In this document: piece by piece, positions 499 to 24,262 of the stretch
How positions within the stretch are numbered: the first letter of the stretch is position 1
How the letters are laid out: each line of letters starts with the position of its first letter
Position numbers and translations under genes: made by a program
Notes under the pieces: generated by a model
What the model was told of the DNA's origin: nothing
What the model saw: the letters and a program-made list of their open reading frames with translations, nothing else
Database searches by the model: none
Assembly: GCA_026627305.1 (NCBI GenBank)
Contig: JAPNVD010000035.1
Span: forward strand, 1-32,000
Source: Sulfolobaceae archaeon
GTDB taxonomy: Archaea > Thermoproteota > Thermoprotei_A > Sulfolobales > Sulfolobaceae
DNA: 32,000 nucleotides
Reading direction: 5' to 3'

Positions 499-1740
499 AG
501 ATTTCACACCTCAAGAAGAGTACACATACTTGACTTATGCATTAAAGAACGATAAGAGGGAAGAGACCCTCTTCCTCATAAAGGAGTACAAGAAGCTATT
601 GGAGAAAGCGATAGACTACTTGTGGAACAAGACAAGGGTAAAAGTAAAGAGTACTACAGATAAGAGGGGAAGGCATAAGAGCGTTAAGGTAAACCTACCG
701 AAAAAGAAGGACGTTTATAAACAGTTAAGGGACGAGCTAGAGAGAGTAAACACACTAGCTTCCCACCATGTAGACAAGGCTATTAATGAAGCGTTTTCCA
801 TCCTTAAGTCTTGGAGGAAGAGGGTATTAAAGGGTAAAGCGTCTTTAAAGAAGCCCAGAGTGAAGAAGGCTTATGTTAGGGTTAAGTCAACTCTGAGGAA
901 AGTAGTCAACGAAGAGGTTAGGATAACTGTCAGACCTCACGATTACTTGACCTTTTCATGGGGAAACGCGTGGTTCAGGGAAAGGGGTTGGAGCTAGGTG
1001 AGCCTATAATAAAGGAGGACAAAGTGTACTTGCCATTCTACTACAAGGTGCCACTCCGCTCTCCACTGGACTTCTTAGCAATAGACTCAAACCTATTTAG
1101 TCTAGACTCCTATGATGGTGAGAAGTTCATAACATTCTCACTCAAGGAGTTATACTCCCTAAAGTATGGCATGGTAAAGAAGAGGGGTAAGGTACACTCC
1201 TTTGCATCAAAGCATAAGAAGAAGGGTAAAGAGTTGTTGAGGAAGTATTCTCACCGTGAGAGGAACAAGGTCATTGACTATGTGCACAAGTTTGTAAACT
1301 CTCTCCTAGAGCTCTACCCCTTGACGACCTTTGTAGTAGAGAAACTGAATAAGCAGGAAATGTTCAATGACGCCGACAACTCGCTGTCTAGGAAGATTTC
1401 AAGGACTGTGTGGAGGACTATCCACAAGGTGCTAAAGTATAAGGCACTACTTTATGGCTCACGAGTTGTTGAGGTAAACCCGCACTTGACTTCTAGGTCT
1501 TGCCCCAGATGTGGGTTTGTATCCCGAAAGGTTGGCAAGACCTTTATCTGCGAGAGGTGTGGTTTTAAGTTGGATAGACAGTTGAACGCGTCATTAAAAA
1601 TTTTCCTCAAGATGTGCGGGTTCCCCCACCTAGTCTATATCCCGTCTAGGTGGGTTGGGGTTATCCCGCTAATGGGGCGGAGGAGGGTGAAGGTGGGAAA
1701 ACCGCTTGACTCCCGTGAAGCCCAAGGGTTGATATTAAGT
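479..1740 (+). pseudogene. tnpB: TnpB (IS605/IS607 orfB, RuvC-like RNA-guided nuclease family), single frameshift near 970-995
   Basis: ORF 479-997 (N-terminal part) and ORF 958-2085 (C-terminal part) are contiguous apart from one frame change in the run ttcagggaaaggggttgg. The RuvC triad candidates IDSN, VVEKL and LDRQLNAS are present, as is the zinc finger CPRCGx14CERCG. The 3' end is approximate. Confidence 0.8.
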
Positions 1741-1839
1741 TATATGAAATCCGATGAAACCCAAACCCCACTATATTCAACTAAAGTATATTACCAGCTC
1801 TATATTTCAATTTTATATATTAGTTTAGTCTTTAAAATA

Positions 1840-2085
1840 ATGAGAAAGATAATGAATGAATTAAGGTATGAGATTAAGGTATCCGGAATCTGCTGTGGAT
1901 ACTGTGTAGCAAACGTTAAAGATATCATTAAAAGGGAGAGTAAAAATTCTGTTGATGAAATTGAAGTTAAAATAACTGATGGTACAATAAGGATGATTGC
2001 CAGTAAGGATTTAGATGTAGCAAGGATAATTGAAAGTCTTAATAGAGCAGGATATTATGTAATAGATTTAAAAAGAGAAAAATAG
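1840..2085 (+). CDS. Heavy-metal-associated (HMA) domain metallochaperone-like protein, 81 aa
   Basis: The sequence YEIKVSGICCGYCVANVKDIIK...IEVKITDGTIRMIAS...IIESLNRAGYYV fits the ferredoxin-like HMA pattern with a CxxC metal site (CGYC). A TATA-like ttttatatat (1811-1820) lies about 25 nt upstream of ATG 1840. The track ORF 958-2085 fuses it artefactually to tnpB. Confidence 0.7.
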   Translation: MRKIMNELRYEIKVSGICCGYCVANVKDIIKRESKNSVDEIEVKITDGTIRMIASKDLDVARIIESLNRAGYYVIDLKREK

Positions 2086-2269: not shown

Positions 2270-2995
2270 TTAAGAATTTCCTTCAATGTTCTTTATTATT
2301 ATTTCGTCGAACTCCTTAGGTCTAGGAAGCCTTATGGACTTTAGTGAATTTATGAATTCTTCTTTGTTATTTATACTAAATAACTTGTTATACTTTTTCT
2401 CAAAACCGATGGTTGATGACGGTTTTCCACTCATCCCAAATCCACACGCTGAACCAGAAGTATGGGCAGGGAAAACTTCAACGTAATCTGGTAATACCTT
2501 AAGTTTCTGTAAACTGTAAAAGAGCTGTTCTGCTGATTCCTCACCTCCTATATCTATCCTACCAATTCCACCCACGAATAGCGTGTCACCAGTTAGTACT
2601 GCCCAAGGCTCATCTCCTCTTCTTAAGTCGGTTATAAGTACAGAAACACTGTCTGGAGTATGCCCGGGAGTATAAAGGAACTTTATTTTGACGTTACCAG
2701 CTTTTATTTCCTCGTTATCTCTAACCTTTTGTGCAAACTTAACCTTCGTATTCTCATGCATATAAACATTAGCCCTAGTTATGTCAGCTAACCTTTTTGC
2801 CCCAGATAAGTGGTCAGCGTGAGTGTGAGTATCTATAATGTAAGATATCCTCATGTCGTACAATTCAGAAAAGTTCATCAAATCATCAACTAAGTCTAGC
2901 CTAGGGTCAACGATTATTAATTCACCTGCTTGAGTACATCCAATGACGTAAGTTAAGCACCCTCCACTTTTTGAGATGAACTGTCTAAATAACAT
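2270..2995 (-). CDS. MBL-fold metallo-hydrolase, ETHE1/persulfide-dioxygenase- or glyoxalase-II-like
   Basis: The motifs HTHADH, TPGHTPDS and GDTLFVGGIGRID are present. The N-terminus LFRQFISKSGGCLTYVIG resembles the ETHE1-type start LFRQLF..S.TYTYL. Confidence 0.8.
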   Translation of the reverse strand: MLFRQFISKSGGCLTYVIGCTQAGELIIVDPRLDLVDDLMNFSELYDMRISYIIDTHTHADHLSGAKRLADITRANVYMHENTKVKFAQKVRDNEEIKAGNVKIKFLYTPGHTPDSVSVLITDLRRGDEPWAVLTGDTLFVGGIGRIDIGGEESAEQLFYSLQKLKVLPDYVEVFPAHTSGSACGFGMSGKPSSTIGFEKKYNKLFSINNKEEFINSLKSIRLPRPKEFDEIIIKNIEGNS

Positions 2996-3224
2996 ATGTT
3001 AATATAATCAACATAATTAAAAAGGGTTATTCACTATTCTCAGTTAAATGCTTACAACATGATGAAAGCTTTTCTTTAAGTCGAGAGGAAATCAGCTCCT
3101 TAGCTTTTGCTATCGTAACCTAACTAGCCTCAAAATTTTTCTAGATATAAACCCTTTAAATGGCTTATTGTCTGAAATAATACTGAATTCTGCACTAAAG
3201 GACGAGGTTTGCTCTTCCTTTGTA

Positions 3225-3899
3225 TCATTTATCACTGTTAAATATTAACTTAAAGTGTTCCATTGAATGGATTATACAACCTAAGCACGACTCTACAGTG
3301 GCGTAAGATTCATCGGTAAAAACAACAGTTATTTCATCATTAAAAATCATGAACTTTGCATTGACTTCATCATTGTATTTAATCTTTCCTCTCAAGCCCT
3401 TAACTTTCTTCATATCTTCGCTTTTTACTACTAAGTATAGTTCGCCGTTAAAGTTTCTCAGTAGCTTTATCAACCAGCCTGGTATTTTCGGATATACCAC
3501 CTTAAGGATTTTGGCCTCACTGATCATGTTTCTCACGAAGCTCATTACTTGTCTTCTCCCTTCAATTACGGTAGACCTTTCTTTGCTCTTATCCTTGGTA
3601 ATGGTGTTTATTTCAGCAACTATTTTGTCTATCTGCTCTATGATAGTTTGCTTGTAATTTTCAAAGCTTATGTTAGGATCTATGAGTTTAACCCTCTTCG
3701 GTTTTCCATTTATCACTTTAACAAAACCTTTCTTCTCAAGCCTTGAAACTACGTCATACACCTTTTGGTATGGAACGCCAGACAGTTCTGCCAATTCCCT
3801 CATTTTGGCGTTGCAGAGTTTAGTTAATGAAGAATAAACTTTGCTCTCATATCTTGAAAAACCTATCTTAATTAATTTCTCTTCCAATTCACCACTCAT
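3225..3899 (-). CDS. TrmB-family transcriptional regulator
   Basis: The N-terminal winged HTH reads LIKIGFSRYESKVYSSLTKLCNAKMRELAELSGVPYQKVYDVVSRLEKKGFV, typical of TrmB. At 224 aa there is also a C-terminal effector-like domain. Confidence 0.75.
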   Translation of the reverse strand: MSGELEEKLIKIGFSRYESKVYSSLTKLCNAKMRELAELSGVPYQKVYDVVSRLEKKGFVKVINGKPKRVKLIDPNISFENYKQTIIEQIDKIVAEINTITKDKSKERSTVIEGRRQVMSFVRNMISEAKILKVVYPKIPGWLIKLLRNFNGELYLVVKSEDMKKVKGLRGKIKYNDEVNAKFMIFNDEITVVFTDESYATVESCLGCIIHSMEHFKLIFNSDK

Positions 3900-3940
3900 A
3901 GTGAATAATACTAATTTATTGCTAATAAGACTTTATAGTA

Positions 3941-5018
3941 ATGAGTAAGAAGAAGAACTTTCAACTCTTCACCGTATTAGTCTTCTTCACGGGAATTTAC
4001 TTAGGAGTATTCAGGGTAGCATTCCCAGTCCTTGAATTGAATGAATATTATTTCGTTCTATACTCGATTATTATTTTTGGTTTCACTAAAGCTTTAATGA
4101 ATTACATCTCTGGACATTTGTCAGATATAATAGGTAGGAGAAAAGGTGTTAATATTAGGTTGGTTAGTCTCAATTCCTTTACCATTAATAGCAATTATAG
4201 TCAAATCTCCTATATTAGTTACATTATTTACAGTGTTTCTAGGAGTAAATCAAGCCTTAACCTGGACTACTACAGTGACTTCTCAGATAGACATATCTGG
4301 CAAAAGGAGGGCAGGTTTAGCAGCTGGGATAAATGAAACTTTTGGGTACTTAGGTGTCTCGATGGGGAGTTTTCTCTCTGGTTTAATAATTTCCTCTTTC
4401 TTCTCACCATATTACTTGATGTTATTAATAGGGTTATTAGCTTTGGTATTCTCGAATAAAGCATCAGAGACTAAACCTAACACAAGTTTAGGTAAGGGAG
4501 GATTGATGTCCTCTCTACTTATAGGTATTGCTGGACTATTGGAGAAGTTTGTTGATGCCTTCTTCTGGGTTCTTCTACCACTATACCTATCTACTAAAGG
4601 TCCATTTGAGATTTCCACCATAGTGACAATATATACACTAACCTGGGCATTATTACAGATCCCTTTTGGGTATATGAGTGATGTGAAAGGCAGACTCTTG
4701 TTATTAGTGTTAGGATTTATTTTTATGGGAATTGGAGTTTCTATCTTCACGATTCAGTATTACGTTATTTCTGCCCTTATAGCTGGATTGGGAATGGCAA
4801 TGGTATATCCTAATCTCATAGCCTATGTAAATGATTATTGTAGCGATATGAATAGAGGGAAGTCGTTAGGTATTTATAGGTTGTTGAGGGATTCAGGTTA
4901 TGGATTTGCTGGGCTAATTTTCTTATTAATATATAAAGACTTATTAACAGCTGTAATTCTAGTAGTTCTCTTACAACTCGTATCCATATTTCCCCTAGTG
5001 TACGTTAGGAGGATTTAA
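3941..5018 (+). pseudogene. MFS transporter interrupted by one frameshift (about 4138-4148)
   Basis: ORF 3941-4336 carries the MFS loop motif GHLSDIIGRRK. The hydrophobic continuation (V)LILGWLVSIPLPLIA... is in another frame (ORF 4146-5018). The switch occurs at aggagaaaaggtg. Confidence 0.7.
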
Positions 5019-5039: not shown

Positions 5040-6147
5040 CTAGATATTATTGAAAGCGACCTTTAGTGCCTGACTTCCTCCCCTTAGAGAGGTTCCCCTC
5101 ATCGATTCAAGATTACATCTCTCATATATCGAGAGGGTCAGAGAACCATAAAGGTTCATAACTGCAATAACGTCACGATCGTTCTCATAACCGCAAGGAC
5201 AATGATAGCACCTATGTCCTACTTCTTTCATTTCTTTACCACACTTAGGACATTTAGTCGAAGAGAAATGTGGATCTACATAGACAACTTTTGGACTGTA
5301 TTTTTTAGCCTGCCACTCAATTCAGTATTGTACCCTACGGTAATGCATCAAGTACAGTCTATCCCAAAATCACTTGGTAGTCTCTTCACACTTTTGATCA
5401 TATTATTTAAGTAATCTAAGAAGATGACAGAGACGTTTAGTGAGTTAGCTACTTCTACTACCCACTTACCTAACAGAGTCCTCCAAGATGTTCTTAGCCT
5501 TTTTGTGGAATGACCTAATCTTGTTCTCCCTCCACCTCTTCTCGCACTTTTTCTGTAATGACTAAGCTAATGATTTGTAATGATGAGCATCATCAAGTAG
5601 GTATCCTAACGTACTTTTCATCGTCCTCACCAACGACTACATCAGCCATGTTTATGTCTACTGCGACACTGTCATTAACTTCTGGCTCTTTCCAGTCCTT
5701 AAGAAGAGAGACCTTTAAGTATGCCTTTGCATCTCTCAATACTAACCTAGCCTCTCTCATTTCCCAGTCCTTGTATTCTGATAAATTCCTTGGATAGCCC
5801 TCTATTTTTAATTCGCCAACTCCCGCTATTCTCACTACCATCTTGTTGAAATCTATTGAAAACGATAGGGTTGGGGTCAACCATACGGACACGTTGCGTA
5901 CAGTAGGGTACCTACTGCGTTTAGGGTTGTTTAACCACGACTTATACTTTGCTATAGCGTCCCTATAACAGTCCTGAGCGACTTTTGACGGTAGATTAAG
6001 CTCTCTTAGGACCTCATAAGTCCCCTTATGAGTGTCTTTTAACAACTTTTTCGGTCTGTTTTCTCTTAACCATTCTGAAACGAAACGTAGACCTTTTTCG
6101 TACCTTTCAACTAAGCTGAGCAGAGTGGCGGTAGGGGAAACCTTCAA
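5040..6147 (-). pseudogene. tnpB: tnpB copy A, internally deleted and frameshifted
   Basis: N-terminal ORF 5593-6147 and C-terminal ORF 5040-5231 ([24 protein letters not shown]) match copy B. The 5232-5592 segment aligns to copy B only with deletions and stops. Confidence 0.8.
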
Positions 6148-6220
6148 ACTGTGGCTCTGATTACGATCTCACTCTTTGAGACCCCTCTACTCCTATTTAT
6201 GAGTAGAGGAAAGGAGTTTA
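5070..6220 (-). mobile_element. TnpB-only IS200/IS605-family (IS1341-group-like) element, degenerate copy A
   Basis: The right end ...GGGGAGGAAGTCAG terminates at 5070 on the minus strand. The tnpB remnants are collinear with copy B at 10122-11319. The left end has a subterminal hairpin ctctactc/gagtagag near 6186-6209. Confidence 0.7.
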
Positions 6221-6257
6221 TATACCTTCATCTCCGCCAGAGAGGCTTTCCCCAATT
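6221..6257 (-). repeat. Orphan IS right-end-like repeat (family GAGGAAAGCCTC...GATGAAGGT) abutting the left end of copy A
   Basis: The reverse complement aattggggaaagcctctctggcggagatgaaggtatat matches 10087-10121 and resembles 14778-14817. Confidence 0.6.
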
Positions 6258-6425
6258 TGTAAACGACAAGGAATTAAAACGACATCGTTCAATTAGTTCT
6301 GTATATGCCGTTCATCTTTGTACTGACGTTCTCCTGTCCTGCCAGTATGGCTTTCCTCGCATAGGGGTGGAAGAGGAATTTACATCAGGGGACTTAGAAA
6401 TCTTTAGCGGACCTCTTGAAAAAAG

Positions 6426-6436
6426 TTTATATTTTA
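6426..6436 (+). promoter_or_regulatory. TATA-like box for the 6455-9224 operon
   Basis: tttatatttta is centred about 24 nt upstream of ATG 6455, consistent with a leaderless archaeal transcript. Confidence 0.4.
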
Positions 6437-6454
6437 AAGTTTGAAGCTATAGTT

Positions 6455-7558
6455 ATGTGCGCTGACTTAGTTGACATTGATTATTCCTCCTCCACAACTT
6501 GGGATCAATACATAAGAGAGGACGTAATGAGGGTATATAAAGCAACGTCAAAGGCCCTCAACTTGTATCAGCAGGTTGAGAAGTATGCCAACTTAACTTA
6601 TGACAAGCTAGACGATAACTTGAAAAGGATACTTTTAGGTGGAGTTATAAGAAAAAAAGATGGATCCTTTGACTACACAAGAAACAGTAGTGCAAGGTTT
6701 TATAAGGAGCTTTTCGGCTTAAGTATGGACTATGCCGCGTATCTACAATCACTTCAGCTAAATACCCCAATTCCTATTAAGCTAATAAGAACTGAACCAG
6801 TTGAGGTTGGCTTACGTACGGTAAGAGATTACATTCAAGCTATGAATGATTTAGCCAGGAGAATCGTAATCTCTAGTAACTTTACTCCAGCTATGGAATT
6901 AGAAAACGTTTCCCTCAGTGATTTAAATGGAGTTTTAAATACATTTAAAGAGCTAGTTGAGTCATTGATTAACTTTTCGTCGGTCTATAACCCAAGGACA
7001 TTCTTTATAACTTCTCTAACAGGCAACATCCTGAAAGCGTTTCTAGAGGCTTACGATAAGCTTAACGACGAGAACGTCAGAAATAGCGTATTCAAAAGGT
7101 TTGGAGTAATTCGTTTAGCGGACTTTTTGAGAGATGAAAAATATGCAATTTACGGGTACACTGTCAACTCTTTAGGTCGCCACATTACTGAGCTCGATAA
7201 AATGGTTTATGTTTTTTTACGCAAATTTTATTCAGAATATATAAGCCTAGATAAATATATAGTGGACGATTTCAAGTCTTTACTTAGTATTTACCTTACG
7301 TCCTCAAATCTGGCTGAAGTATTAGATTTCAGTTGGTGGGGTTCGATTAAATGCGAGATACCAACATCAGATCCACTGTCAATGGTATCGTGTCATAACA
7401 CCTATGATCCTTATTACTATAAATATAGATCTAGAAAATACACCCTTATGGAAATGCTTGAGGAGTTTTCAATCCCCCTCTTACTCTATTATGATCTAAA
7501 AATGGAATATAGTTACAATACTTTAGTATTGCAATTAGATCCAAAACACGAGGTGTGA
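6455..7558 (+). CDS. Hypothetical protein (about 367 aa from ATG 6455; track start TTG 6416), no recognisable motif
   Basis: A long uninterrupted ORF with coding-like composition and a TATA-like box upstream. Its stop TGA 7556-7558 overlaps the SD-like GAGGTG (7550-7555) of the next gene. Confidence 0.65.
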   Translation: MCADLVDIDYSSSTTWDQYIREDVMRVYKATSKALNLYQQVEKYANLTYDKLDDNLKRILLGGVIRKKDGSFDYTRNSSARFYKELFGLSMDYAAYLQSLQLNTPIPIKLIRTEPVEVGLRTVRDYIQAMNDLARRIVISSNFTPAMELENVSLSDLNGVLNTFKELVESLINFSSVYNPRTFFITSLTGNILKAFLEAYDKLNDENVRNSVFKRFGVIRLADFLRDEKYAIYGYTVNSLGRHITELDKMVYVFLRKFYSEYISLDKYIVDDFKSLLSIYLTSSNLAEVLDFSWWGSIKCEIPTSDPLSMVSCHNTYDPYYYKYRSRKYTLMEMLEEFSIPLLLYYDLKMEYSYNTLVLQLDPKHEV

Positions 7559-7562
7559 TATA

Positions 7563-9224
7563 GTGGAAAGTAAAGGGGAGGAGAAGAACAAAAACGTAAC
7601 CGCTGAGGAAAGTAAAAGCGATTATTACACTAAAGCTAAAGGGGACGTCAAAAGTAGTGTAAGGATTTCCCCTCAAACGGGGGTTGAAAACAAAAGCGCC
7701 ATTTCCCCTCCTACACCGTCTATAAATGTTGAAGCCCCAGTTAACATTAAGGACCAGTTGAGCAGAGCTGTAGTTCAAACCCTCCTATTCCCTGCTTTAC
7801 CTACAGTTAACGTCCTAGACTTAGACACCAATAACTACTTGATAACCACAGTTACTTCGCAGAGGCGTAACATTGCTATAACACCCCTTATCTTCCCGAT
7901 TCCGCTCAATGTAATAGTCTCACAGATCGACTTAGAAGACTACTTAACTACTAGCGTTAGTAGGAAAGCATTGGTGATAAAGCCTCTACAGTTTAAGACC
8001 CCACCTAATGTTATAGTCAACTCCCTAGACGTTACGGTTAGGGAAGAATTCGCTTTGAAGTTAACGCCTCCTAACATAAAGGAGACAACGATGGACACTA
8101 AAACTGGTGTAAGCGAAACATCAGCAGCTCAAACAATTAGTTATACCTCTACTCCTCAGCCTGAGAAGAGCATTTCTATCAAGAGCACCACTTATGAAGA
8201 CTTTCTTAACCCGTTTTCCAGTCTGTTAAAAGCCTCTGGGGTAAACATTGTAGTATATGACGAAATGAAGCCAGGGATAGAGGACTCGCTAGTAAAAATT
8301 GGTGTAGAGTTTGCCCTCATCAACGGCTATGAGGTAACACCGCAGGAGATATCTACGAAAAACCTGAACAGCATACAGCTAATAGGGAGTGCAGGAGTAT
8401 TCAAGGTGGACAAATCGCTATGTGAGGAGAAGGAACCCACTTTGTACGATCAAGTGGAGAGCTTACTGACCAAGATCATGGGATACCAATTCTCTATATT
8501 AATAGTCCCTTCATGCTTTTACACTAAATACATGCTAAACATAGGTGGGAAACCGCATAGGATATTTGCCGATGAGGATGTATTAAAGAGGTTTTCAAGC
8601 ACTATCAATCCAAAAATACTCCATACTTATAAGGCTAATAAAGAAGCGATACAGAGGTTAGCCTTTGGCGCTTCAGGGCTCCAGGTGGATGTTTCGTCAT
8701 ACGATGCCCTAGCCCATCATAACCTGCAATTTATGAAGATATTAGACGATTCGTTTAAATGGCTCAGGTTGCGTTACCCTGATTTGAATAAGCCTTCAAC
8801 GGGAGAAGAGACTGAGTACCACCTAAAGATGAAGGCAGTGGTTATAAAGCATTTAATAGAGAACCTAAAGGTGGAGCCCAAGTCCATAAAAGTAGAAGAG
8901 GTGCTACCTCCCTGTGGAATACCAGATATTCACTTTTCCTACCAAGGTAAGCTGATTGCAGTGGACGTTAAGACGAGCATTGGTAAAATCCCCAGCAGTG
9001 AGGTAGACGAGGCTTATAATAAGTACCAAGGGTGTTCAGACGAGGTTTGGGTAGTGCTGAGACCTTTACCAGCTCTGCTAGACCTTGTGGACATTATAGG
9101 GCGTTATAAAGGGTATAATAGTAAGCTAAAAGTACTCTTACCCGTAATGGGTTATGGCAGTAAGGTGTCGTTACTGCCCCTAGAAGATTTTATACAAAAG
9201 ATGGAAAGCCTGCAGACTTGTTAA
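7563..9224 (+). CDS. Hypothetical 553 aa protein: low-complexity N-terminus, three ~33 aa tandem repeats, C-terminal PD-(D/E)xK (Hjc/restriction-endonuclease-like) nuclease motif
   Basis: GTG start lies 8 nt after GAGGTG. The repeats share xFPxxPxNV(I/L)VxxxD...YLxTxV (aa 74-172). The C-terminus reads GEETEYHLKMKAVVIKHLIENL...GIPDIHFSYQGKLIAVDVKTS, which fits E...PD...(D/E)xK. Confidence 0.7.
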   Translation: MESKGEEKNKNVTAEESKSDYYTKAKGDVKSSVRISPQTGVENKSAISPPTPSINVEAPVNIKDQLSRAVVQTLLFPALPTVNVLDLDTNNYLITTVTSQRRNIAITPLIFPIPLNVIVSQIDLEDYLTTSVSRKALVIKPLQFKTPPNVIVNSLDVTVREEFALKLTPPNIKETTMDTKTGVSETSAAQTISYTSTPQPEKSISIKSTTYEDFLNPFSSLLKASGVNIVVYDEMKPGIEDSLVKIGVEFALINGYEVTPQEISTKNLNSIQLIGSAGVFKVDKSLCEEKEPTLYDQVESLLTKIMGYQFSILIVPSCFYTKYMLNIGGKPHRIFADEDVLKRFSSTINPKILHTYKANKEAIQRLAFGASGLQVDVSSYDALAHHNLQFMKILDDSFKWLRLRYPDLNKPSTGEETEYHLKMKAVVIKHLIENLKVEPKSIKVEEVLPPCGIPDIHFSYQGKLIAVDVKTSIGKIPSSEVDEAYNKYQGCSDEVWVVLRPLPALLDLVDIIGRYKGYNSKLKVLLPVMGYGSKVSLLPLEDFIQKMESLQTC

Positions 9225-10086
9225 ATGTTTACTTTTTCACTGCCTTGTGTACTTAACCTCGTCCTCTATTATCTTTAACAACATTTCACAAAGGAACAAC
9301 AAGCCTCATCCTTAAGGAGATTAGCCCTAGGGCTAATTTAATTGTCCCTTAGATTTCAAACCTACAATTAGTCGTCCTTCATCACAACTCTGCTTCTTGT
9401 CAATCTCGTTGATATGAGCTCATACATGAAAGGTATAGACTAGGATAATGACGATAAAACGGCTTAAAATTGAACTAGCTTATAGAATTTAAGAAACTTC
9501 ATATGCACATTTGAGCTTGGTTATTGTGAAAATTTAAGTTCCTAAAAAGTCTAATAGGATCGAAGATGAAGATCTTCTGTCCTATAGCTGTTGGCTGTCA
9601 ATAAGTATTTATCATCTCTCAAACAAAAAAGGGAGATTAACCATGTTATACTAAAAATAGCACTGGTTCGTTTACCTTTTATCGTACGGTAAAGATTCTT
9701 ATGAAATAGACCCAAATCCCTTTTCCGTAAACATTCCTATACTGCTTACTTTATCCTCAATCTCGGCTGGGGGCATTAGTGCTAAGTACATAGGTTCCCT
9801 TTTGTTAACGCTAAATCCAGTCGATAATAGCCTAAAAGGTGAGCTTAAGCTTTTCCTCATTTAGGTTTTTAACTTTCACGCATTGGTCTTTAAGACATAC
9901 CCTATCGACATCATAGCTATCGATTATCGCAGGCGAGTACAGTATCCTCTTCCTGTTTTATACAATGAGTCTCTTTATTTCTTCTCCCCTAGCACCATCA
10001 TCTTCATTAGTCTTTCCTCACCTCCTAATGGACCTACGAACTTGTCTATTATCTTACTAAGATCCTTGTCGTAGTCAGCCTTTACA

Positions 10087-10121
10087 AAGTGAGGAAAGCC
10101 TCGCAGGGCAGGGATGAAGGT
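10087..10121 (+). repeat. Orphan IS right-end-like repeat abutting the left end of copy B
   Basis: aagtgaggaaagcctcgcagggcagggatgaaggt is the inverted counterpart of 6221-6257 and is related to 14778-14817. Confidence 0.6.
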
Positions 10122-11372
<1,251 letters not shown>

Positions 11373-14111: not shown

Positions 14112-14507
14112 CTAACCCTTCCAGTTACAGACCTTCAACCCACTTATCTTGGAGAAGTGTCTAACGTTGCCTGTCACGACCTCACATCCGTTAGATAGAG
14201 CTATGCTACCTATTATTAAGTCCCTCATTTCAATCGGTTTTCCCTTGCTCTCCAACTCAGATAGCAACTTCCCTGCGAGTATAGCTGAGTCAAGATCAAG
14301 TCCCAAAACCTTCAATGTCTTAAAGAACTCAACTGTCCTATCTACGTTCTTCCCGTACTTGTAAGCCCCATAAACTACCTCAAACACATTTAAGACAGTT
14401 GTGCAGAGCTCTCCCTCCTCTACAGCCCTCTCCATATACCTCACAGCTTCAACTTTGCCCCTCAAAAAGTCTATTATAATGTCACTGTCTAGGCATTTAC
14501 AGCCCAC
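14112..14507 (-). CDS. vapC: PIN-domain toxin VapC
   Basis: The acidic PIN residues are in the expected order (LDSDIIIDF, FEVVYG, MRDLIIG, TGNVRHF). At 131 aa it overlaps the upstream antitoxin gene by 19 nt. Confidence 0.8.
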   Translation of the reverse strand: MGCKCLDSDIIIDFLRGKVEAVRYMERAVEEGELCTTVLNVFEVVYGAYKYGKNVDRTVEFFKTLKVLGLDLDSAILAGKLLSELESKGKPIEMRDLIIGSIALSNGCEVVTGNVRHFSKISGLKVCNWKG

Positions 14508-15804: not shown

Positions 15805-17059
15805 ATGTCGAGACCTAAAAGACTAGTTAGGATAATTCCAGTACTCTTCTTTTTATACCTCATAAACTTCCTAGATAGGGTAAACATTTCATATGCCATA
15901 GATGCGGGGATGTTCCAGTATTTAGGAGTTCCAGCAAAACAAGTGGGAGTAATAGCATCAATAGCATCATCACTGTTCTTCGTAGGATACTTCATACCGC
16001 AAATATTCTCAAATTTAGGTATAAATAAACAAGTATGGTATAAGGAAGATCTTTGCAGTAGCCTTCACTGCCTGGGGGATAATAACTATCTTAACTGGTT
16101 TCGTAACTAGTGTCCCACAAGTCGAAGTGCTGAGGTTCTTACTAGGTATCGCTGAAGGTCCATTTTATGCAGGTGTCATGTTCTATTTGAGCTTATGGTT
16201 TTTAAAATCTGAAAGGGCTTTTGCTAATAGCCTATTTAACGCAGCCATCCCCATCTCTGGAATAATTGGTGGTCTGATAGCTAACTCAATATTTGCTGTT
16301 TACGGAGATTACCCAGGGTGGAGGTACCTGTTCTGGTATGAGGGAGTTTTAGCACTCGTAGGTGCACTAATAGCCTACCTCTTGTTAACGGACTTTCCAA
16401 AAGATGCTAAATGGTTGACCAAAGAGGAGAAGGAAGCCTTAGACCAAGCTATGAAGGAGGAATCGGTAAGTAAGATGAAAGTTAAGTGGACTCAAGCCTT
16501 AGCGTCTAGAGATGTAATACTACTTGCAATAGTTTACTTTTTAGGCGTTACCAGCCTTTACGGTTACTCCATATGGCTTCCAACAATAATAAGTAATTTA
16601 GCAAAAGTTAACGCTAGTATTGCTAGCTTCTTATCGATAATACCATATGTACTTGCATCCATTGCCCTAGTATTCATTGCGAGATATTCGGATAGACATC
16701 AAAATCACAAATTCATAACCTTCATAGTGTTTTTGATAGCTGGGCTAGGATTAGCGTTAAGCGCGGTTAGTGCAAGCATAGTGGTATTATCTTTCATATT
16801 ATTTGCGATCTCTGCTATTGGCATCTTCAGCTTCCTTTCACCGTTCTGGGCTGTACCTCAGAAGGCATTAGAAAGCGAAGGTGCGGCTGCAGCTATTGGC
16901 TTAATAAACGCTGTAGGAAATTTAGGCGGAATAGCGGGACCGATAATAGTAGGGTTTCTGAAGACGTTTACTGGCTCATTTCTGCCAGAGATTTATGCTA
17001 TGGCATTGTTCGCATTCCTTGCAGGGTTAGTGATGTTATTAGTGAGGGAAAGAGGTTGA
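15805..17059 (+). pseudogene. MFS transporter (ACS-family-like, [10 protein letters not shown] motif) with one frameshift near 16021-16036
   Basis: ORF 15778-16110 ends in out-of-frame sequence after LGINK. The frame holding ORF 16127-17059 is already open upstream and reads [45 protein letters not shown]. The shift lies in the A-rich run ataaataaacaag. Confidence 0.75.
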
Positions 17060-23667: not shown

Positions 23668-24262
23668 CTACCTCCTAAAATTGAGTCCTCTTCTTATCCC
23701 TCCCCTAAAGTGCCCCCAGGGCTTTACAAGACTAGTGCGAGGTTTACAACCTATGCCTAGGTCATAAAGCCTTTTATAAGGCAAGCTGTTTTTCTTTACA
23801 TAGTCCCATAGCGTGCTCCAAGTCCCGTTAGATAGCTGGTTAAGCTTTGTTATGCCATCATTTACTTCATCCATCTCAACCTTAGCTCTACTGAAGCTCT
23901 GCACCCTCCTAACACCCGTTATCCGAGCCTTGAGATCCTTTAGAGCCCTTTTTAGCGTGTTTACATTCCTTAACTTCCTGAACTCTAAGCTCTTGTAGAA
24001 GAAGTTCATTCCATACCTACTTACCATTTCCTCTACCTCCTTGTATACCTACTCCTCATGTCGCTGTAAGGTCACAGGCCTCTTGGTATAACCTCTCAGT
24101 ATCTGTTATGATCACCCTTGGTCTATTGATTACCTTGCTAAGAACATCCTCCATCTGACCACTGAAGGCTATATCAGGGTGGGACTTTTCAACATTTCGT
24201 TTAAGAACCTGATATGCATGGCCTCTGTATTTGAGTTTCTTTAATTCCTCCACCGAGATCAT
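23668..24262 (-). pseudogene. cysH: PAPS/APS reductase (CysH family), split into two ORFs with a degenerate C-terminus
   Basis: ORF 24056-24262 (DIAFSGQMEDVL...ITDTERLYQEA) and ORF 23668-24027 (EFRKLRNVNTLKRALKDL..ITGVRRVQS..R...KLNQLSNGTWSTLWDYVKKNSLPYKRLYDLGIGCKP) are collinear with CysH. At the junction each frame has its own stop. The expected CxxC reads CKPR, and the terminal ECGLH motif is missing. Confidence 0.6.

Follow-up and report, generated by a model that had tools for sequence, protein, structure and literature searches.

Several described systems that rely on a nuclease offer points of comparison for the operon considered here. The OLD- and Septu-type systems (Class 1–4 OLD, Gabija GajA, PARIS AriA/AriB, Septu PtuA/PtuB and the retrons Ec78/Ec83) have a layout in which a conserved partner is combined with an exchangeable nuclease effector, and type II toxin-antitoxin operons consist of two translationally coupled genes. 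Cran1, an archaeal OLD-family ATPase-nickase of the order Sulfolobales, belongs to a nuclease family that is usually linked to defence; it acts in the cell cycle and is essential and vertically inherited in all Sulfolobales, showing that such nucleases can have cellular roles (PMC12796447). A 2026 census described archaea-specific defence systems as largely unknown and urged efforts to find them (PMC12988326). The DNA analysed here, referred to as the window, is a 32,000-nt chromosomal segment of a Sulfolobaceae metagenome-assembled genome (MAG), and the operon consists of two of its genes, OWQ54_09800 and OWQ54_09805 in the source record, which we call gene 1 and gene 2. On the evidence of comparative sequence analysis, the pair belongs to an archaea-restricted operon family, and this family is a credible candidate for an archaeal system of defence or conflict not described before; we put the probability that gene 1 regulates a nuclease effector in such a system at roughly 0.4.

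The operon shares the partner-and-effector layout of the OLD- and Septu-type systems, and one related locus, L021, carries a PtuA/retron-like ATPase. It departs from them in that gene 2 of the window lacks a Walker A motif and matched no TOPRIM profile, and in that gene 1 is not related to helicases, HNH proteins or reverse transcriptases. Pfam and PADLOC scans of the window proteins returned no AAA_15/AAA_21, TOPRIM or HNH family, and Walker A, Walker B and H-loop motifs occur only in the L021 variant. With type II toxin-antitoxin operons the pair has in common its coupling, a downstream product that is potentially toxic to nucleic acids, a patchy spread and variable surroundings. However, its proteins of 367 and 553 aa compare with a typical ~70–150 aa, no DNA-binding antitoxin domain (helix-turn-helix, ribbon-helix-helix or AbrB) can be recognised in gene 1, and those operons offer no counterpart to the N-terminal repeat adaptor of gene 2 or to the forms with two gene 1 paralogs. 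Unlike Cran1, the module is found in few species and is sometimes broken; it is also non-homologous to Cran1 and has no ATPase motif and no profile match.

Neither window protein gave a match above noise in Pfam, NCBIfam, PHROGs or PADLOC, and sequence and profile searches of the PDB returned nothing significant for either. The wider family likewise gave nothing above noise in Pfam, PHROGs and PADLOC; when 60 gene 1 and nine gene 2 relatives were compared with PADLOC, only scattered single matches were obtained, all with E > 1e-3. No paper came up when full texts were searched for the accession numbers and locus tags, and no description of the module is present in any library or paper searched. 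A first-pass annotation of this DNA, made from the sequence alone, had been unable to place the pair in a named family or system, and the negative Pfam, NCBIfam, PHROGs, PADLOC and PDB sequence searches agree with it. We rate a nuclease-effector operon with a regulatory partner as a known kind of system and both component protein families as undescribed.

The same annotation had called the pair an orphan, and this did not hold. An exhaustive HMMER search of 1.84 billion cluster representatives returned 88 relatives of gene 1 at E <= 1e-3, mostly of 370–430 aa, giving a family of at least 88 clusters at 50% identity that spans several archaeal lineages and often includes a third gene, a second gene 1 paralog. 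The close relatives, obtained from word-indexed searches, are for gene 1 those of Metallosphaera tengchongensis (72% identity), a Logan contig (65%), a JGI metagenome contig (55%) and Ca. Aramenus (54–56%), and for gene 2 those of M. tengchongensis (59%), Aramenus and Acidianus manzaensis. More distant gene 1 relatives come from Sulfolobales (including Sulfurisphaera ohwakuensis), Pyrococcus kukulkanii, a Methanococci MAG and metagenomes, the named three being annotated as hypothetical, and a metagenome scan with one gene 1 subgroup added 53 loci.

In every first-round locus where both genes could be inspected, the pair was adjacent. Linkage was then scored with local hidden Markov models (HMMs) on all fetched loci, comprising 62 non-redundant gene 1 loci, of which the 50 with at least 400 nt downstream form the denominator. 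A gene 2 relative follows the gene 1 relative directly and on the same strand in 47 of these 50, with a gap of −38 to +329 nt (median ~1 nt; −38 to +47 nt in 41 of the 47). Among the three exceptions, the contig of L014 breaks off within an N-terminus of the usual kind, K/E-rich and with repeats; in L046 the effector is replaced by an 82-aa open reading frame (ORF) and an ORF for an insertion sequence (IS)-type helix-turn-helix transposase (1404–2215), which suggests that this module was disrupted by insertion; and L021 carries a different effector. Conservation of the pair as a unit, which had been raised at the outset together with a patchy distribution, is supported. Two tandem gene 1 paralogs, 26–29% identical to each other and often overlapping by 4 nt, precede the effector in 28 of the 62 loci; this three-gene form is found among L016–L063, and in L016 its genes lie at 259–1269, 1266–2531 and 2525–4387. 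The gene 1 protein of the window scores about equally against the models of both paralogs, which, together with the two-paralog loci, suggests that gene 1 forms a homodimer here and a heterodimer elsewhere. A 323-aa gene upstream of the module in L013 was considered as a third component and rejected on finding that it matches neither paralog HMM, and no further gene recurs beside the module in the loci compared.

The distribution of the module is patchy, extending over few Sulfolobales lineages, P. kukulkanii and the Methanococci MAG. Within the Sulfolobales the carriers are the window MAG, M. tengchongensis, A. manzaensis, S. ohwakuensis and Ca. Aramenus; searches of a database of 5.8 billion proteins yielded no homologue from the well-studied Saccharolobus and Sulfolobus species, Saccharolobus islandicus and Sulfolobus acidocaldarius appear to lack the module, and most family clusters have one to eight members. 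A scan of genome contigs with the gene 2 profile returned one locus, at an Aramenus contig end, and missed known carriers. In the Aramenus AZ1 MAG (L003/L004 10001–12911, and L005) both genes are frameshifted and gene 2 is split over two contigs, the result of either assembly error or decay; in another Aramenus MAG gene 2 is intact and encodes 595 aa (P0009). Frameshifted and IS-disrupted copies are as expected for dispensable genes. Searches of mobile elements gave no match: tblastn found none in 50,697 phage and virus records or in 72,556 plasmids, three IMG/VR profile scans returned no locus, and the family has no consistent PHROG match.

These results bear on the possibility that the pair is part of a cellular DNA-processing complex acting in repair, recombination, chromatin or the cell cycle, with gene 1 targeting the nuclease to a cellular substrate. 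Such a role would fit a chromosomal module without matches in the viral and plasmid collections searched, the position of L012 and L014 between housekeeping genes, and the precedent of Cran1 in cell-cycle progression (PMC12796447). It is harder to reconcile with a distribution that is very patchy even within the order across which Cran1 is vertically inherited, with copies that are frameshifted or interrupted by an IS, with genomic neighbourhoods that are never conserved, and with the replacement of the effector by a PtuA-like ATPase in one locus. We regard a cellular complex as unlikely.

The exchange of the effector is seen in L021 (1270–4635), where a gene 1 relative, which matches the family HMM at E = 3e-100, precedes a gene for a 715-aa ABC/SMC-type ATPase with the motifs GLNDSGKS, ILVDEIE and THSP. 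Its closest PDB sequences are the ATPases of retrons Ec78/Ec83 and of Septu PtuA, followed by SMC and Rad50 heads; these matches have E ~1e-3 and span the Walker A and the Walker B/H-loop regions. The first 60–100 aa of the protein begin with a K/E-rich stretch and continue with VKIPILKLEKPKIEVK. This N-terminus is homologous to the N-termini of gene 2 proteins of the same subgroup, with 42–58% identity, E = 6.5e-9 after composition correction and low-complexity filtering, and a score of 66 bits as against a maximum of 38 for 100 shuffles. The N-terminal module has thus stayed with gene 1 and the catalytic part has been exchanged, which suggests that the repeats link the effector to gene 1 and that the effector is interchangeable. 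This single locus is the best evidence for both suggestions, and its ATPase may stand for a hitherto undescribed class of archaeal OLD-like proteins that have a partner of their own. Its C-terminus contains VVIFCEGPTDEE and VLFVGDEDQE, in which a TOPRIM-like EGxxD/DxD arrangement can be seen by eye, as in OLD-family nucleases; no profile or PDB sequence search confirmed a TOPRIM domain, and the assignment was not retained.

In gene 2 of the window the corresponding N-terminal region begins with a segment in which the first-pass annotation had noted many Lys and Ser residues; the first 68 aa are indeed rich in Ser, Lys and Glu. The three tandem repeats that it reported next are also present, as units of ~34 aa of which neighbouring ones align at z = 5.5–5.8 relative to shuffles. 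Their P, F, V and D positions are invariant among orthologues, and a 33-aa period with the core hydrophobic-P-hydrophobic-hydrophobic-x-L-x-x-P is found again in distant subgroups; Tandem Repeats Finder detected no tandem repeat at the DNA level in this region. An AlphaFold2 model of gene 2, built from a six-sequence alignment, has aa 1–204 disordered, with a predicted local distance difference test (pLDDT) score of ~20–29, and aa 205–553 folded (~55–93). The repeats would probably serve as an adaptor by which gene 2 binds the gene 1 protein.

The C-terminal domain carries the PD-(D/E)xK signature that had been claimed for it, and the signature is conserved across the 36 distinct full-length family members over which residues were counted. 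In the order of the chain, E416 and H420 lie on a helix and are followed by E445, P454-D455 and D468-V-K470. H420, E445 and D455 are invariant in all 36 members, and position 468 is acidic in all of them (E in 30, D in six); position 470 is E in 30 and K in six, K being the Sulfolobales type to which the window belongs. K424, T471 and K487 are each kept in 35 of the 36, and E416 in 28. The model of aa 401–553 has block means of pLDDT of ~70–93, lower in the last residues, and shows the element order expected for the superfamily. Its best Foldseek match is to YaeQ (2g3w; probability 0.97–0.98, E = 8e-3), which has a known PD-(D/E)xK fold; viral endonuclease-like and Mrr-domain proteins were matched at probabilities of 0.47–0.84, and restriction endonuclease proteins were matched as well. 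The Pfam family CoiA_nuc (PF06054) was matched at E = 0.22 with the full protein and at 0.021 with the isolated domain, and a PDB profile search of the domain gave nothing significant. Members of the PD-(D/E)xK superfamily have an alpha-beta-beta-beta-alpha-beta core, with an acidic residue (often in PD) on strand 2, (D/E)xK on strand 3 and, in most cases, a Glu on the first helix. The residue pattern fits this superfamily, with a helix bearing E/H/K followed by strands with E, PD and (D/E)x(K/E), and the domain is a predicted metal-dependent nuclease. It differs from the superfamily in that most gene 2 relatives carry ExE, not ExK, and in its fusion to a repeat N-terminus and an alpha/beta domain, a combination found in no named family. 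In its His-Glu-Asp-Glu/Asp arrangement the site is reminiscent of variants with a His, among them the cap-snatching endonucleases, a resemblance that we mention as a lead only; one gene 2 family member had a match to L_protein_N at noise level.

The Glu that replaces the canonical Lys of the (D/E)xK motif in 30 of the 36 members, together with profile and fold matches that all fall below usual significance, leaves room for another explanation, in which the domain is not nucleolytic and has a binding or structural function, the pair then having an unrelated role. Yet three acidic residues and the His are kept at the expected metal-binding positions, with K424 and K487 nearby, ExE variants of the motif occur in active enzymes such as BamHI, and the replacement effector of L021 comes from a nuclease-associated family. 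A non-nucleolytic domain is, in our judgement, very improbable.

The middle domain of gene 2 contains two conserved sites, V231-Y-D-E234 after strand 1 and D283 after strand 3. In Foldseek searches it weakly resembles AAA+, clamp-loader, RecA-type and other P-loop folds, none at E < 1e-3; it has no Walker A motif (no GxxxxGK[ST]), and strand 1 is followed by VYDEMKPGIED. It was also considered as a TOPRIM domain, with Glu after strand 1 and DxD after strand 3, and this was rejected: DxD is absent from the window type, being found only in the Pyrococcus and L012 members, and Foldseek gave no pointer to TOPRIM.

Gene 1 had been described as having no motif assignable to a family, and library scans and PDB sequence searches were empty for it: there was no Pfam, NCBIfam, PHROG, PADLOC or PDB sequence match, the only weak Pfam match being Xre_MbcA_ParS_C at E = 0.27, which is noise. 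Its conserved residues are W16, G62-G63, S78, A80, G88, Y178-N179, T182-F183-F184, Y200 and G217, and the family motifs can be written as F-D-Y...W..Y, ILLGGV...G.Y..NSLAKFY..FG and NYN..TFF..S......Y...AYPKL. Nearly all conserved positions are hydrophobic, aromatic or Gly, and residues of these non-catalytic types leave no catalytic site apparent. Foldseek found no credible PDB fold match for its AlphaFold2 model, which is weak (pLDDT 60) and predates the deep gene 1 alignment. Judging from its conserved residues, the gene 1 protein would be a scaffold, sensor or regulator.

Taken as a defence or conflict system, the operon would work as follows. The gene 1 protein, non-enzymatic, of ~370–430 aa and probably a homodimer or heterodimer, would hold the effector through the repeats of gene 2, would restrain the nuclease and would serve as sensor; a trigger, in the most plausible case a virus or some other invader, would then free or activate the nuclease, which would cut nucleic acid. 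We favour a role in defence or conflict on account of the patchiness and dispensability of the module, its variable contexts, the intact active site, the translational coupling and the effector swap. The fuller proposal, that the operon is the founding example of an archaea-specific immune or conflict family in which a dimeric non-enzymatic sensor holds, by the 33-aa proline-containing repeats of a disordered N-terminus, an exchangeable effector (usually a pseudo-ATPase with a PD-(D/E)xK nuclease domain, occasionally an OLD/PtuA-like ATPase-nuclease), is put forward only tentatively.

Several points weigh against a defence or conflict role. The effector swap is known from one locus. The AlphaFold2 model of gene 1 has a mean pLDDT of only 60, no Foldseek match of gene 2 reached E < 1e-3, and CoiA_nuc scored 12–15 bits, under its cut-off of 20.3. 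The window proteins have no match in PADLOC-DB v2.0.0, and the absence of the module from the viral and plasmid collections searched weakens both a defence and a mobile-cargo reading. Proximity to toxin-antitoxin genes and IS copies is weak evidence, these being very common in thermophilic archaea, and some neighbours are housekeeping genes (cobalamin and diphthamide genes at L012, Nop5 and ribosomal protein genes at L014). Finally, Cran1 is a case of an archaeal OLD-family enzyme whose role is in the cell cycle and not in defence (PMC12796447).

The anatomy of the operon (Table 1) is held with high confidence. The two long coupled ORFs of the first-pass annotation are both present, with 4 nt between them and a GAGGTG site for gene 2. 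At the junction the GTG start lies 4 nt beyond the gene 1 stop, as had been stated; the GAGGTG had been said to overlap that stop, whereas it abuts the TGA. Identity by codon position relative to two orthologous loci follows the order position 2 > position 1 > position 3 in both genes, which indicates that both are real and under purifying selection. The gene 1 ORF is open from a TTG at 6416 as well. We prefer the ATG at 6455 because DNA homology with the M. tengchongensis locus starts at 6454, because orthologues open with the residues MCADLVDIDY, and because of the position of the TATA-like box. That box, which had been claimed for the pair, was found as TTTATATTTTAAA and falls within the TTG-extended ORF; a TTTATAT-like box is kept at equal distance from gene 1 in L001, L003 and L009. 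Its spacing from the ATG would imply a leaderless or near-leaderless mRNA, and leaderless transcripts of Sulfolobales have the same arrangement of TATA box and start. The T-rich tract TTTACTTTTTCA past gene 2 is a possible archaeal oligo-T terminator.

Table 1. Coordinates in the window of the operon, its signals, the parts of gene 2 and the nearby insertion sequences.
Feature	Position	Strand	Description
TATA-box-like element TTTATATTTTAAA	6426-6438	+	Centred ~25 nt upstream of gene 1 ATG; read from sequence
Gene 1	6455-7558	+	ATG start, 367 aa, TGA stop 7556-7558
Shine-Dalgarno-like site for gene 2, GAGGTG	7550-7555	+	Abuts gene 1 TGA 7556-7558
Gene 2	7563-9224	+	GTG start, 553 aa
Gene 2 aa 1-68	7563-7766	+	Ser/Lys/Glu-rich segment, predicted disordered; composition, AlphaFold2 pLDDT ~20-29
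Gene 2 aa 69-172	7767-8078	+	Three repeats of ~34 aa; core hydrophobic-x-P-L-x-F-P-x-x-P-x-V ... D
Gene 2 aa 205-400	8175-8762	+	Alpha/beta domain and helical linker; five strands alternating with helices; AlphaFold2 pLDDT ~55-85
Gene 2 aa 401-553 and stop	8763-9224	+	PD-(D/E)xK (restriction-endonuclease-like) domain; residue pattern and predicted fold
Candidate active-site codons	E416 8808, H420 8820, K424 8832, E445 8895, D455 8925, D468 8964, K470 8970		
T-rich tract TTTACTTTTTCA	9229-9240	+	T5 run 9233-9237; just past gene 2 stop; sequence only
TnpB-only IS200/IS605-type copy 1	958-2085	+	Intact, 375 aa; Pfam OrfB_IS605 and Cas12f1-like_TNB
TnpB-only IS200/IS605-type copy 2	about 5091-6238	-	Degraded, fragmented; left end also placed at about 5040; context, outside module
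TnpB-type IS copy 3	10107-11372	+	Without N-terminus as ORF; context, outside module

The surroundings of the operon were examined for signs of mobility. IS copies 2 and 3 lie inverted around the pair, over about 5091–6238 and 10107–11290, and are 76–92% alike in segments, and the TnpB ORF of copy 1 clusters with the ORFs of copy 2 in blastp comparisons. Scanning the window for Rfam families and tRNAs gave no match, and no IS-associated RNA was among the Rfam results. The bracket of inverted IS copies pointed out in the first-pass annotation therefore exists, but it is not a feature of the module, its copies being old, diverged and mostly missing elsewhere. Most of the other loci tabulated have no IS bracket, and the window resembles M. 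tengchongensis in DNA sequence only across the two coding regions. For these reasons, and because both copies encode TnpB only, we regard the bracket as incidental. That the pair is the cargo of an IS200/IS605 composite transposon was considered and rejected, as the flanking copies are too diverged, one is degraded, and they are not conserved around the module. Related IS copies also lie downstream of gene 2 in L001 (12871–14105, ~100 nt away) and L003 (13834–15045, ~900 nt away), in differing orientations; they belong to M. tengchongensis and Aramenus, respectively. The end of the operon may be a preferred insertion target, or these genomes may simply have a high IS load.

Neighbouring genes were compared in called-gene tables, which cover the loci other than the 53 from the metagenome scan. 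The neighbourhood differs at every locus: toxin-antitoxin genes lie beside L008, L009 and L010, PaREP1 genes beside L006 and L013, a Cas10 gene beside L015, and IS copies beside the window pair, L001 and L003. In the window, a position among toxin-antitoxin genes had been claimed, and this is weakly true in that one PIN-domain gene lies ~5 kb away among the 20 ORFs scanned; the window also carries metabolic genes.

Such surroundings would suit an addiction module or mobile cargo, with gene 1 as the putative antidote to a toxic gene 2 nuclease, the pair being kept by post-segregational killing and carried by IS or integrated elements. The order of the genes, with the putative antidote first, and their translational coupling are like those of type II toxin-antitoxin operons, inverted TnpB-type IS copies flank the window pair, M. 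tengchongensis and Aramenus have related IS copies no more than ~1 kb downstream, and L008, L009 and L010 have toxin-antitoxin neighbours. However, both proteins are far above toxin-antitoxin size and gene 1 lacks a DNA-binding domain; the IS copies are old, as their segment identities indicate, and one is degraded. No composite transposon is known to be formed by TnpB-only elements of the IS200/IS605 type. The called-gene tables of many loci, such as L002, L012 and L014, contain no transposase gene, the DNA shared by the window and M. tengchongensis is limited to the two coding regions, and the plasmid, virus and IMG/VR searches gave no match. On balance, we consider an addiction module or mobile cargo distinctly unlikely.

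A few further features of the window may be recorded. The PIN-domain gene, which is VapC-like (14112–14507, minus strand), is the sole toxin-type gene in the Pfam scans, which covered the 20 larger ORFs and left out the small ones. Beside the left IS, an MFS transporter gene is broken up into a pair of overlapping ORFs (3941–5018), a second MFS ORF (16127–17059) begins at Pfam position 91, and a phosphoadenosine phosphosulfate (PAPS)-reductase ORF (23668–24027) covers only profile positions 76–174; these MFS and PAPS-reductase ORFs may be pseudogenes or reflect assembly frameshifts. The 880 nt between gene 2 and the right IS (9225–10106) contain no ORF of more than 63 aa, have no Rfam match, and show no similarity to the orthologous loci.

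The module is a concrete archaea-specific candidate, made up of two families that are unnamed in every library searched and strictly linked in ~50 loci that range from the Sulfolobales to the Thermococcales and Methanococci. The hypothesis of a defence or conflict role can be tested directly in Sulfolobales species for which genetic tools exist. Should the function prove to be cellular, the gene 1 family would still be a new protein family with no known fold, and tethering through the repeats would still be a novel means by which a regulator is coupled to a nuclease.

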